Shown here: piece by piece, positions 1 to 5,065 of the stretch | Layout of the letters: every line of letters starts with the position of its first letter | Numbering within the stretch: position 1 is the stretch's first letter | Source: a plasmid | Direction: 5' to 3' (one strand) | DNA length: 5,065 bases | Sequence record: NZ_CP040890.1 | The notes under the pieces: generated by a model | What the model was told of the DNA's origin: nothing | Database searches by the model: none | The model's input: only the letters and a program-made list of their open reading frames with translations | Translations under genes and position numbers: made by a program

Positions 1-3
1 ACG

Positions 4-1179
4 CTATTTTTTGAAGGAAAAATGCTCTTTAAAGACAGAGAGTATTGAAGTGGTACTTTCCGGCAACTCGACGATCCCGGTTTCTTTGTTGTAGTAGGAA
101 ACCAGAACTTGGATGTAAGCATGACCTACGGCTTGGGTAAGAGCTACAGCAGTAGCTGCAGAAATGGCACCACCAATAAGGGAACCTACACCAGGAATAA
201 ATTTTAACGCATTAGAAACAACAGCCTTACCTACTTGAGCAACAGCTGTAATACCAAGAATGCCTGCTACAACAGATGTAGTTGTTGATGTAGATGTGTC
301 CAATTCAAACTCAGAGTTTATTTTATATATCATTCCACTTTGTACAGCTGCAATTAACGGCGCATCAGACCCCGGAATAGGAGAAGCTCCGACAGCTCCA
401 GCTGCTGCTGACGCTCCATGAACGATGTTTCTCGCGCCACTTTTCATGGCTTCAAGCCGTTCTCCCATCTTAACCATTTGAGCCTTTTTTAAGGCTTGCT
501 TTGCACCTCTCTTAGCTTCTGGAAGACATTTAAAACTCGAGTCAACTAACTCATCCAAACCACTTACTGGAACAGTAAACTTCCCTATTTTTCTTTCTCT
601 TGAATTAACACAAACATAGTTACCAGAAACATAACTTCCATGATGGCTATCAATTTCATTGATAGCCTCGCGAACAAATTCATCAGTGTCATCTTCAAGA
701 GTTTTAGTGAATACAATTACAATAGGTATGTCATATTCTTTTAATATCCCGATAAGCTCTATATCTCTTGGTTCAACTCTGGCGCCAGAAGCATCAATGC
801 ACATCCAACCAAGGTGAGGAACATCATCCAAGTGTGAGTAGTTATCAAAGCTAGATTTAATTTCTTTTTTTAATTGATTTATTGTTTCTTCATAATCTTT
901 AGATTCAATCCCTTTAGTGTCCCATAATACCATTCCTTTTTTGGGAACTTTAATTTTACTCAGATGCTGAGTAACTGGTTTACCCACTCCAGACTTGACT
1001 ATTTCCTCCCCAAAAACAGCATTAACTAAGGAGCTTTTCCCAACGCCAGTGGCACCGAACAATATAATATTAAATCTTTCTTTTTTTTCTTCTGCTTCCT
1101 GTTTTGCTTTGTCAGCATCGAAAGTTTGTGAGTTGTAGTCATAAGAATCGCCTAAAAAGTCTTCATAAGAACTAGCCAT
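4..1179 (-). CDS. P-loop GTPase (TRAFAC-class, MMR_HSR1/Era-like G domain) fused to a C-terminal DUF697-like glycine-rich hydrophobic (probably membrane-associated) domain; 391 aa.
   Basis: ATG at 1177-1179 (minus strand). An SD aaAGAGGt (reverse complement of 1184-1192) lies 4-5 nt upstream and overlaps the rep stop codon. G1/Walker A is GATGVGKSS. G3 is LWDTKG (DxxG). A G4-like FTKTL is present. The C-terminal region reads ...GASPIPGSDAPLIAAVQSGMIYKINSEF...GILGITAVAQVGKAVVSNALKFIPGVGSLIGGAISAATAVALTQAVG, which is typical of the DUF697 family that Pfam notes is sometimes associated with GTPase domains. The stop is tag (reverse complement of 4-6). The gene is strongly AT-rich compared with the rest of the window. 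Confidence 0.85.
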   Translation of the reverse strand: MASSYEDFLGDSYDYNSQTFDADKAKQEAEEKKERFNIILFGATGVGKSSLVNAVFGEEIVKSGVGKPVTQHLSKIKVPKKGMVLWDTKGIESKDYEETINQLKKEIKSSFDNYSHLDDVPHLGWMCIDASGARVEPRDIELIGILKEYDIPIVIVFTKTLEDDTDEFVREAINEIDSHHGSYVSGNYVCVNSRERKIGKFTVPVSGLDELVDSSFKCLPEAKRGAKQALKKAQMVKMGERLEAMKSGARNIVHGASAAAGAVGASPIPGSDAPLIAAVQSGMIYKINSEFELDTSTSTTTSVVAGILGITAVAQVGKAVVSNALKFIPGVGSLIGGAISAATAVALTQAVGHAYIQVLVSYYNKETGIVELPESTTSILSVFKEHFSFKK

Positions 1180-1181
1180 AG

Positions 1182-2084
1182 TTACCTCTTTAATTGTCGA
1201 TAATACGTGCTTCTACTTATCCCCATGCTTAGCCATGGTTTTTTTGATGTTAAGGACTCAGGATTAAAAGGTCGTCCACCACCTTTACTCTTTTTACCCC
1301 GTAAAGACTGGATATCGGATGTATGTGTTTTTTCTACATACTCTTTAAAAGATGATTCTGTTATTTTTATACTCGTCCACTTAGCAATGCTTTTAGCAAT
1401 ACCGTTCACCTCATTATCATCCAGTGGTGCTGCAAATTGCAGGTTATAGGCACTGGCGCGTTCGTAGCAGGCTTGAAGCCACTGGTCATACTCAGGCCAG
1501 CCCTGACGGATAGCGCGGTATGCCCACTTGCGGGTTCTGTCGAACAGGGTGCAGTTACGGCCTAAACCGTAGTCAGCAACGATTTCTTTGTCGTTCGCCG
1601 CATTCAGGTCGAGAAAGTCAGCCAGCCAGTCCAGCGTGTAAAGTTCAGGTTGCCATACGGCAATTTTCCAGTGGCCGTGGTTCGGATTTTTGCAGATTAG
1701 CCCCGAATACCCCGCGTCAGCCTCTAATTTTTTGCGTAGCGCGTTCTCAACGGCGGCGGCGTAGCGCAATGGCTTTATTTTTCCGTCCGGTGCGGTGCGT
1801 ATCGAGGTTTTCAACGCGTACAGCAGGTGCGCATGTCCGTTGTCGGGGTTGGTGATGGTCAACGTAGGCGCGGGGGCGTTGCGATCGCTCCAGTCGATGG
1901 CGGCACCGGCGCGATCGACGTCGAATCCCAGCCAGAACATGGCGTGAGGCTGATTAAACTGGATGTATTTCGCCAGAATGGCGCGTTCCTTACCGGCAAT
2001 CCGTACACCAAAATGCAGATCGTCCGAAAAGTACGGCTTGTGCGGTAAGCGGTCGTTGAAGAGTGTGAGTGCGGCGTTATGCAA
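1182..2084 (-). CDS. rep: ColE2-family plasmid replication initiator Rep (priming Rep; Replicase/PriCT_1-type), 300 aa. The start is TTG.
   Basis: The N-terminus reads ...FNDRLPHKPYFSDDLHFGVRIAGK...PHAMFWLGFDVD, which matches the conserved LPHKPY...GVRI...FD motif block of ColE2/ColE3 Rep primases. A PriCT-like segment ...NEVNGIAKSIAKWT is present, followed by a basic C-terminal tail (KGGGRPFNPESL...RSTYYRQLKR). The only in-frame start after the upstream stop (taa at 2097-2099) is TTG at 2082-2084, and its SD is weak. The 3' third of the gene (below about 1440) is AT-rich. Confidence 0.85.
   Translation of the reverse strand: MHNAALTLFNDRLPHKPYFSDDLHFGVRIAGKERAILAKYIQFNQPHAMFWLGFDVDRAGAAIDWSDRNAPAPTLTITNPDNGHAHLLYALKTSIRTAPDGKIKPLRYAAAVENALRKKLEADAGYSGLICKNPNHGHWKIAVWQPELYTLDWLADFLDLNAANDKEIVADYGLGRNCTLFDRTRKWAYRAIRQGWPEYDQWLQACYERASAYNLQFAAPLDDNEVNGIAKSIAKWTSIKITESSFKEYVEKTHTSDIQSLRGKKSKGGGRPFNPESLTSKKPWLSMGISRSTYYRQLKR
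1184..1192 (-). promoter_or_regulatory. Ribosome-binding site of the GTPase gene, overlapping the rep stop codon (translational coupling).
   Basis: The reverse complement of 1184-1192 is taaagaggt (AAGAGGT). The rep stop TAA is at 1182-1184. Only 2 nt separate the two CDSs. Confidence 0.6.
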
Positions 2085-4889: not shown

Positions 4890-4975
4890 CAGGGGTTTCG
4901 GGGGGCGGCGAGCCCCCTGAACCAGTCACGGTGGCACCTCGCTAGAGGGGACGCTGTGTGTACTGGCTTAAAGAG
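4890..4975. other. Origin of transfer (oriT/bom), ColE1/pBR322 type. Probable nic site between 4966 and 4967 (tactgg/ctta).
   Basis: ggggtttcgggg...ccagtcacg...gtgtgtactggcttaa matches the pBR322 bom sequence GGGTGTCGGGG...CCAGTCACG...GTGTATACTGGCTTAA, including the nick-region core. An upstream GC inverted repeat GGGGGC-ggcga-GCCCCC is at 4901-4917. The region lies directly upstream of mbeC as in ColE1. Confidence 0.8.
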
Positions 4976-5007
4976 TAATGCAGTATGTCAGATTCTGTGC
5001 TGACTGC

Positions 5008-5035
5008 AAAAAAAAAAGCCCCGCTTATACGGGGC
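5008..5035 (-). terminator. Rho-independent terminator-like hairpin read on the minus strand (GCCCCG-tataag-CGGGGC followed by a 9-10 nt U-run). In ColE2 the equivalent structure immediately follows the ori.
   Basis: The plus strand has a10 (5008-5017), then gccccg (5018-5023), cttata, cggggc (5030-5035). On the minus strand this is a perfect 6-bp GC stem with a 6-nt loop followed by T9-10. Confidence 0.6.
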
Positions 5036-5065
5036 TGTTATCTGATATAGGTTGTTATTGTCTCA
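5018..5065 (-). other. ColE2-type origin of vegetative replication (Rep-binding and priming site).
   Basis: The minus strand reads tgagacaataacaacctatatcagataacagccccg.... The 14-mer TATCAGATAACAGC and the TGAGAC boundary match my recollection of the ColE2-P9 minimal ori (TGAGACCAGATAAGCCTTATCAGATAACAGCGCC). CAATAAC/CAGATAAC repeats are present. It is followed by a hairpin and T-run. It is separated from rep only by the GTPase gene if the molecule is circular. Confidence 0.7.

Follow-up and report, generated by a model that had tools for sequence, protein, structure and literature searches.

Organization of the replication region

The window examined in this study (sequence record NZ_CP040890.1, analyzed at its full length) is a whole circular, mobilizable plasmid of 5,065 bp that belongs to the ColE2 type (class C theta replication). 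Every gene of the window is carried by the minus strand, and this work concerns the region in which the replication gene rep, a GTPase gene and the origin of replication (ori) follow one another on that strand. Circularity, which had been presumed in a first-pass annotation of the DNA, was confirmed by an 18.7-kb metagenome contig (L057), a concatemer that repeats the whole unit. Because this contig joins position 5065 to position 1, the window represents a complete circular plasmid. The features of the region are as follows (GC, guanine plus cytosine content; GC3, GC content at third codon positions).

2084-1182, minus strand: rep, with Replicase and PriCT_1 domains; an intact 300-codon open reading frame across the GC break
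1446-2084, minus strand: rep 5' part (Rep residues 1 to ~212), comprising the primase core and the start of the DNA-binding domain; GC 0.56, GC3 0.67; conserved backbone
1182-1445, minus strand: rep 3' part (Rep residues ~213-300, stop codon at 1182-1184), comprising the C-terminal two-thirds of the DNA-binding domain; GC 0.375, GC3 0.29; hypervariable; left end of the module discussed below
1185-1191, minus strand: Shine-Dalgarno sequence AAAGAGG of the GTPase gene, within the last rep codons (read from the sequence)
4-1179, minus strand: gene of a 391-residue GTPase; TRAFAC G domain, followed at the C-terminus by a hydrophobic and glycine-rich DUF697 region (Pfam)
5052-5065, minus strand: ori left half, TGAGAC plus the 8-nt spacer AATAACAA; variable and matched to the Rep tail; right end of the module
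5034-5051, minus strand: ori core CCTATATCAGATAACAGC; invariant in the clade, with the exact pattern in 78 clade loci; the backbone resumes here
5007-5036, minus strand: terminator-like hairpin and T-run directly after the ori core, which it overlaps by 3 nt (terminator scan)

Rep matches the Pfam families Replicase (PF03090, 155.7 bits, E 8.5e-46) and PriCT (PF08708, 34.6 bits), both above the cut-offs. Its residues 176-299 align to the DNA-binding domain of ColE2-P9 Rep (PDB 3VW4 chain A, E 1.2e-26), so that the variable block starts ~40-50 residues inside this domain. The minus strand from 5065 to 5034 reads TGAGACAATAACAACCTATATCAGATAACAGC, a ColE2-type ori that starts 3 nt past the GTPase stop codon, across the circular junction. 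The classical ColE2 ori, as found in pO26-S4, is TGAGACCAGATAAGCCTTATCAGATAACAGC; both share TATCAGATAACAGC, which includes the AGA primer site and in the window lies within the ori core. Rather than being located immediately downstream of rep, the ori core lies 1195 nt after the rep stop codon. The ATG of the GTPase gene is situated 2 nt past the rep stop, and no promoter-like site was seen in a scan of the minus strand upstream of this gene. The hairpin at 5007-5036 is likely the end of a transcript that covers rep and the cargo gene.

A composition step inside rep

Base composition changes sharply within rep. In 200-nt segments, GC is 0.36 at 1201-1400 and 0.55 at 1401-1600, and 60-nt segments give 0.33 (1361-1420), 0.42 (1391-1450), 0.57 (1421-1480) and 0.62 (1451-1510), with GC dropping from 0.55-0.62 to 0.30-0.42 between ~nt 1480 and 1390. 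The maximum-likelihood change-point is at 1420-1448, i.e., 79-88 codons ahead of the rep stop; when rep is taken by itself, a log-likelihood ratio of 14.5 is obtained at nt 1420, a value reached by none of 5000 shuffles. The first-pass annotation had described an abrupt change near 1440, about 70 codons before the end of rep. The computed GC and GC3 profile is indeed not smooth and its break is inside the 3' part of rep, the distance to the stop having been underestimated. GC3 falls from 0.67 (143/212 in codons 1-212) to 0.30 (26/88 in codons 213-300; Fisher p = 2e-9), and because synonymous codon use shifts in this way, a mere effect of amino acid composition is ruled out.

The GTPase gene has a GC of 0.39 and a GC3 of 0.28, and all the remaining genes range from 0.54 to 0.60, in agreement with the earlier description of an AT-rich GTPase gene next to a GC-rich upstream part of rep and GC-rich other genes. 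A circular two-segment fit delimits a low-GC block of 4961-5065 plus 1-1420 (GC 0.387) vs 0.576 in the rest. The first-pass annotation had assigned the whole ori (5036-5065) to this block. Positions 5052-5065 are indeed part of the variable sequence; the ori core and the AT-rich segment 4961-5033 (hairpin, T-run and flank) are conserved backbone and lie outside the variable block.

The window sequence derives from a metagenome assembly, yet a chimeric contig in which two unrelated molecules were joined at ~nt 1440 is hardly conceivable as the source of the break, since the 18.7-kb concatemer repeats the whole unit with the same junctions, rep remains open across the break over all its 300 codons, and a plasmid from an independent sample (L055, see below) shares the architecture.

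The step is shared by a whole clade of split replicons

Loci containing rep were gathered from one-genome-per-species contigs (GTDB), from PLSDB and from metagenomes. In the enterobacterial clade around the window, all 112 full-length rep genes have a GC of 0.49-0.60 in the first 630 nt and of 0.315-0.50 in the remainder, the remainder always being lower. A codon alignment of 35 rep genes places a drop in GC3 from ~0.6 to 0.2-0.4 at residue ~211 (window nt 1455-1425), and at the same residue mean pairwise identity declines from ~0.85 through 0.72 to ~0.5. All 78 loci with a detectable ori core have this core 435-2752 nt after the rep stop, and the slot between them has a GC of 0.32-0.42, whatever its cargo or orientation. 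Minimal plasmids of 2.5-3.1 kb likewise have a slot (669 nt) and the GC step; no clade member with an empty slot was found among the 78 loci and the minimal plasmids, the smallest slot measuring 435 nt.

The step is not a general trait of ColE2 rep genes. It is absent from distant reps (L035-L044) and from the classical control, the colicin E2 plasmid pO26-S4, whose Rep DNA-binding domain is identical to PDB 3VW4, whose rep GC changes merely from 0.55 to 0.51 and whose ori overlaps the rep stop. As the clade has the step and these other reps are without it, the step tracks the split rep-cargo-ori architecture and not an event particular to one plasmid. In pO26-S4 (L143, 6560-6595), rep ends with a TGA stop codon that is at the same time the beginning of the ori TGAGAC, so that any sequence inserted between the two must have entailed a rebuilding of the Rep C-terminus.

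These results do not agree with the reading given in the first-pass annotation, which took the step as the mark of a single specificity-cassette swap. According to such an explanation, one recent recombination would have brought the Rep C-terminus, the GTPase gene and the ori from the plasmid of a low-GC host, and the step would be its scar. The same step is found at the same codon in 112/112 clade reps, which between them have at least 62 different cargos, as well as in L055; since all of them have it, the step predates any window-specific event and cannot stem from one.

The narrow GC range of the slot, regardless of cargo or orientation, and the lack of a step in the slot-less classical control would both fit selection of AT-richness for a function, such as easier unwinding near the ori, silencing of the cargo by H-NS or reduced translation of the cargo and Rep tail. 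We regard this as improbable, because the low-GC region extends up to 2.7 kb, far beyond the need of an unwinding element, and horizontally moved defence genes are commonly AT-rich in any case.

Rep tail, ori and cargo are linked

Rep is conserved up to about IAKWT (residue ~237) and hypervariable beyond, with two indel sites. On the rep strand, [T]GAGAC or its GCAC variant is followed in the clade ori by a variable spacer and then by the invariant core. Alignments between plasmids reveal no homology upstream of GAGAC, and backbone homology restarts downstream of the ori core. At the first indel site, 4 residues inserted after IQSxR go with a spacer that is 1 nt longer 3'-terminally, with AAG in place of AA; at the second, a linker of 11 or 14 residues between GGGR and PW (vs 5-6 residues) goes with 1 or 2 additional nt. 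These contributions are additive, with spacer length = 7 + (ins1-5)/4 + {0, 1, 2 for a linker of 5-6, 11, 14 residues}. This rule was drawn up on the first 25 sequences and then applied to 32 metagenome loci fetched later, all of which (32/32) fit. Altogether, it fits 52 of 53 sequences (40 of 41 distinct alleles), which was equalled by none of 100000 shuffles. Thus, the co-variation of the Rep C-terminal region with the ori, on which the first-pass annotation had built, is present in this clade, where tail indels predict spacer length. The spacer of the window was found in identical form in L055 only.

The rule agrees with what Hiraga et al. in 1994 and Shinohara and Itoh in 1996 reportedly found for ColE2 and ColE3, in work that included ColE2/ColE3 chimeras. 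By analogy with this chimera work, the matching of tail and spacer would set initiation specificity in the clade.

Two further observations were made on the ori. In L014, at ~2735-2830 past the rep stop, the whole ori is tandemly duplicated, with GTTGACACCATAACAAGCCTATATCAGATAACAGCCCTCTT occurring twice. In nearly all clade members, a hairpin with a T-run abuts the ori core; its stem varies (CCCCG...CGGGG vs CCCTCT...AGAGGG) and the pairing is kept, which suggests a conserved terminator or structural element.

The Rep tail is also linked to the cargo. We distinguished 62 modules among 78 plasmids (clade loci L003-L135). All 33 pairs with the same Rep tail (≥90% amino acid identity) share their cargo. 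Where the tails differ (2970 pairs), the cargo is unrelated in 2966; the other four pairs represent diverged versions of one module, including that of the window and L055. Many cargo genes of sibling plasmids are co-directional with rep, and their starts overlap the rep stop.

The two parts of rep have different relatives

The window backbone (nt ~1265/1375 to 5065) is 92-94% identical to that of more than 100 plasmids of Klebsiella, E. coli and Salmonella, and the cargos of these plasmids include dCTP deaminase, AIPR, DUF262, DEAD/DEAH, AAA-ATPase, TIR and others. When the two rep segments were searched separately, their nearest relatives differed, as the first-pass annotation had expected: the 5' part has 91-95% nt identity to more than 130 PLSDB plasmids, and the best PLSDB match of the 3' part reaches only 69-73%. 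Compared with the nearest backbones, Rep codons up to residue 210 show a proportion of synonymous differences (pS) of 0.1-0.3. This value rises to 0.3-0.4 for residues 211-225 and reaches 0.7-0.96 for residues 226-240, a stretch in which the amino acid sequence is still conserved. Across the clade, identities in the 5' and 3' parts of rep are nearly uncorrelated (Spearman 0.14), and pairs with 93-96% identity in the 5' part have 55-69% in the 3' part. The rep 5' part of the window is nearest to those of L045 and L017 (0.945), and L055, the sibling of its module, ranks 24th of 35 (~0.86).

L055 is the sole plasmid with a module related to that of the window (~80%). This 5,098-bp contig, which comes from an independent sample, aligns collinearly to the entire window at ~82% identity (module ~80%, backbone ~84%). 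It encodes a 300-residue Rep followed, after the same 2-nt gap, by the GTPase (85% amino acid identity) and an ori with the same spacer, and it shows the same GC step (rep 5' 0.53, rep 3' 0.38; overall GC 0.48). Synonymous divergence (dS) between the window and L055 is ~0.8-1.2 in the backbone and module alike, which implies that the rep-GTPase-ori arrangement is old. The donor replicon predicted in the first-pass annotation, with the GTPase gene already between rep and ori, therefore has a counterpart in L055; at a module identity of only ~80%, L055 is related to the donor rather than being the donor. No close source of the block (>90%) was found in PLSDB (DNA and protein), GTDB genomes, a collection of 5.8 billion proteins or metagenomes, the best matches being ~80% for DNA and 92% for the GTPase at the amino acid level.

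The different nearest relatives of the two rep parts and the jump in synonymous divergence inside rep would both be consistent with a recent swap from a low-GC host, as would the lower GC of L055 and the naming of its GTPase as Xenorhabdus bovienii in the source record. Considering that the step is present throughout the clade and that none of the searched collections contains a donor above 90%, we find a recent swap unlikely as the origin of the step.

It could also be proposed that no recombination took place and that relaxed constraint and AT-biased decay acted on a fast Rep tail and an accessory gene in a wholly vertically inherited plasmid. The similar dS of backbone and module between the window and L055 fits this proposal, and so does the ratio of nonsynonymous to synonymous divergence (dN/dS) of Rep, which is 0.05 for residues 1-210 and 0.25 for residues 241-270, a segment that is diverged even between the window and L055. 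However, residues 226-240 are conserved in protein yet synonymously saturated relative to backbones with 93-95% identity upstream, unrelated cargo and tails occur in plasmids whose rep 5' parts match at 93-96%, and the module sibling L055 is far from the nearest backbone. A purely vertical history is thus very improbable.

We consider it probable that the step is the clade-wide boundary of a hypervariable module, made up of the Rep tail, the cargo and one half of the ori, which is reassorted onto different backbones, and not the scar of one event. The window belongs to a subgroup resembling pUB6060 and pHW66, whose replicon is split into rep, cargo slot and ori. In the window, the module extends from Rep codon ~212-226 (nt ~1410-1450) across the GTPase gene as far as the spacer of the ori (5052-5065), and its ends would be functionally matched, in that the Rep DNA-binding tail has to fit the spacing in the left half of the ori. 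Because tail and ori left half must match, both ends and everything between them would be inherited as one unit. Homologous recombination is the mode of exchange between backbones that we infer, along with its direction; the conserved 5' two-thirds of rep would provide one recombination flank, and the invariant ori core with the downstream backbone the other. The window combines a Klebsiella/E. coli-type backbone with a rare GTPase module, to which L055 provides the only relative among plasmids.

Several points weigh against such reassortment. The left crossover is diffuse, with identity to the nearest backbones fading gradually from nt ~1455 to ~1365. Residues 241-270 are just 64-69% identical in DNA even between the window and L055, so part of the divergence reflects fast local evolution (dN/dS 0.25) and not ancient allelism. 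Given their similar dS throughout, the window and L055 could share vertical ancestry, and it could be the backbone, not the module, that was replaced later. The indel rule was framed on 25 of its own sequences, though 32 new ones obeyed it, and the argument for tail/spacer specificity in the clade is one of co-variation between sequences. Finally, reassortment leaves the low GC itself unexplained, for which the candidates are selection, a shared pool of low-GC accessory genes, and AT-biased decay of a fast-evolving segment that is too diverged to recombine.

The GTPase gene and its copies in other replicons

The GTPase matches the Pfam families MMR_HSR1 (47.6 bits) and DUF697 (29.6 bits), both above the gathering scores. 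Its G1 (GATGVGKS) and G3 (DTKG) motifs are intact and G4 (TKTL) is unusual; residues 299-352 contain hydrophobic, glycine-rich segments. Source records label its homologues as YcjF family or GTP-binding DUF697 proteins. Comparison with PADLOC 2.0 gave partial matches to the G domain only (LeoBC, 7e-9, residues 19-103; LeoA, 5e-5) and no full-length match, NCBIfam gave generic GTPase similarity only, and the best PDB match was GIMAP7 (E 4e-5). With a dN/dS of 0.075 relative to L055, the gene is under strong purifying selection.

All other copies of the GTPase clade that we examined (≥80% DNA identity) have a decaying ColE2 ori and hairpin downstream, and most have a frameshifted rep 3' fragment upstream. 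They are located in a chromosomal islet of Pectobacterium beside an integrase, at the end of a Morganella prophage by tail-fibre genes, and in several short contigs. GTPase copies with remnants of the ori, and often of rep, are as follows.

L136/L137: 5556-7282
L138/L139: 5976-7235
L051: 355-1958
L052: 1128-2760

Judging by these flanks, the chromosomal, prophage and other copies are captured plasmid fragments, in which the rep 3' fragment, the GTPase gene and the ori were transferred together. As the fragment ends differ between copies, a discrete transposable element can be dismissed, and the block is rather a plasmid piece that tends to move whole. The first-pass annotation had grouped the Rep C-terminus, the GTPase gene and the ori as one block, and this linkage holds for the left half of the ori, both in the remnants, which keep ori and often rep 3' sequences, and in L055, which has the same order and spacer.

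A similar arrangement with another cargo was observed in a ColE1/Rop plasmid (L141, NZ_CP030330.1), which at ~1935-2504 and in the flanks contains a truncated ColE2 rep (residues 101-296), an AAA ATPase gene and a complete ColE2-type ori, GAGACTAAACAACCTATATCAGATAACAGC. This plasmid also bears a ToxN/AbiQ gene. Here, a further block of truncated rep, cargo and ori has moved to a different replicon. Four other ColE1/Rop plasmids (~4.98 kb; L001/L002, NZ_CP142048.1 and NZ_CP070184.1) have a 70%-identical GTPase as their only cargo, with its own AT-rich upstream region. They were rejected as donors, as neither rep nor ori has left a remnant in them, and their small open reading frame labelled 'replication initiation protein' is unrelated to ColE2 Rep.

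Cargo of the slot

PADLOC models at E ≤ 1e-8 matched 20 of the 28 sibling modules tested. The proteins detected in the slot include dCTP deaminase (E 1e-158), AbiU (E 1e-123), a Pycsar cyclase (E 1e-113), RexA and RexB, NsnA (three modules), HEC-06/DUF262 (two modules) and a ThsB-like TIR protein, in addition to OLD, Gabija, PARIS or Septu-like ATPases, a type II methyltransferase and PDC-S58. About 30% of the slot modules are unannotated. We take plasmid pMUT2 of E. coli Nissle to be a member of the window's plasmid family. This plasmid has been reported to carry Kiwa (PMC13226779).

The GTPase is counted here as a defence candidate because 20/28 sibling cargos match anti-phage models; from its position and its other genomic contexts, it is plausibly a candidate membrane-associated defence or exclusion protein. 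A broader proposal is that the rep-to-ori slot is a dedicated anti-phage defence hotspot, with the cargo locked between co-evolving specificity halves, and that GTPase-DUF697 is a new single-gene defence or exclusion system. We put this forward as a tentative possibility, on the grounds that 20 of 28 sibling modules are known defence genes, that GTPase copies are found at a prophage end and beside an integrase, and that the gene is under strong purifying selection. If it is true, each defence gene travels with a private Rep-ori pairing, and siblings with different defences might coexist.

Other features of the plasmid

The remaining genes of the window are listed below.

4835-4509, minus strand: mobC
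4555-2957, minus strand: relaxase of the MobA/MbeA type
3831-3346, minus strand: mbeB, nested in the relaxase gene
3330-3052, minus strand: mbeD, nested in the relaxase gene
2896-2564, minus strand: RelE-family toxin
2562-2278, minus strand: helix-turn-helix antitoxin

A mobilization set of the ColE1 superfamily is present, with Pfam matches to Relaxase, MbeB_N, MbeD_MobD and MobC/NikA-like families, and the PLSDB relatives of the window are typed as MOBP. In the rep leader (minus strand, 2095-2209), a match to the Rfam family PK-repBA was below the threshold (35.5 vs a gathering score of 45 bits, E 3e-5). Terminator-like hairpins were also noticed on the plus strand of the leader, at 2090-2106 and 2115-2133; they may be part of the antisense control RNA expected for ColE2-type replicons. 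At the biochemical level, such replicons are further defined by a ppApGpA primer that Rep makes and by initiation dependent on Pol I. The metagenome that yielded the window (L057, JGI20225J20221_1001839) also contains a second concatemeric plasmid of the clade (L124-L126, JGI20225J20221_1001483) with an 83% identical Rep, which shows that sibling clade plasmids co-occur in one sample.

Comparison with known systems

In pHW66 of Rahnella, a ColE2-like repA and the putative oriV lie apart, with an insert exceeding 2 kb (36% GC) between them that is apparently cistronic with repA, and the mob genes are of the ColE1 type (Rozhon et al. 2010, PMC2831885). A different low-GC insert is described for pUB6060 of Plesiomonas (Avison et al. 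2001, as related in PMC2831885). The window resembles these two plasmids in its ColE2-type repA, in a low-GC insert before oriV that is apparently cistronic with repA, in the mobA-D genes of the ColE1 superfamily and in the plasmid-specific nature of the inserts: its GTPase gene is at 0.39 GC, follows rep after 2 nt with the Shine-Dalgarno sequence inside rep, has no internal promoter-like site ahead of it, and is followed by a terminator after the ori. It is thus a further plasmid of the pHW66 kind, and its cargo, a GTPase-DUF697 gene, is new and differs from theirs. In the pHW66 and pUB6060 papers, the insert was taken as adjoining repA, whereas the variable block described here starts ~80 codons inside rep, ends inside the ori and does so clade-wide. 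In the literature searched, we found no account of a clade-wide boundary inside rep, of an indel rule holding across cargos, of the linkage of one tail to one cargo, or of the nature of the cargo. The GC step is to be seen as a family trait of a known plasmid type rather than a one-off scar of horizontal transfer.

P2 and P4 prophages are known for their defence hotspots. Like these hotspots and like defence islands (PMC10121019), the slot is a fixed site in a conserved mobile backbone that receives many alternative AT-rich anti-phage genes. Unlike the P2/P4-type hotspots, the slot of the clade is inside the minimal replicon, flanked by two halves of the initiation-specificity determinant. With at least 62 modules in the slot, most of those tested being anti-phage, a reservoir of defence genes may have been overlooked in the abundant 'cryptic' 5-kb plasmids of Klebsiella, E. 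coli and Salmonella, and the unannotated modules, including the GTPase, provide a short list of candidates for new defence genes.

Exchangeable modules, REx-C and REx-R, have been described in the ColE2-related RepA replicons of Pseudomonas PFP plasmids (Bardaji et al. 2017, PMC5304414). In that paper, Hiraga 1994 is cited for the exchange of ColE2 replicon segments and for two incompatibility determinants. REx-C and REx-R are swapped by recombination between related co-resident plasmids, much as proposed here for the modules of the clade; unlike these, they involve an upstream control region with the break at the start of rep, whereas here the Rep tail, the cargo and half of the ori would be exchanged at the 3' end.

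Classical ColE2-type plasmids were reportedly treated by Yagura et al. in 2006; the Hiraga and Yagura papers are cited in PMC5304414 and PMC6856555. The indel rule can be compared with the Rep-DNA structure 3VW4 and could guide the design of orthogonal ColE2-type replicons. The window shares with ColE2-P9 and ColE3-CA38 a primase-type Rep with a C-terminal DNA-binding domain (3VW4) and a short ori with the TATCAGATAACAGC core. In those plasmids too, Rep C-terminal indels are said to track single-nt indels of the ori, and mosaic replicons have reportedly been attributed to homologous recombination. In classical ColE2 plasmids such as pO26-S4, however, the ori abuts or overlaps the rep stop and there is almost no step, whereas the window has 1.2 kb of cargo between the two co-varying elements.

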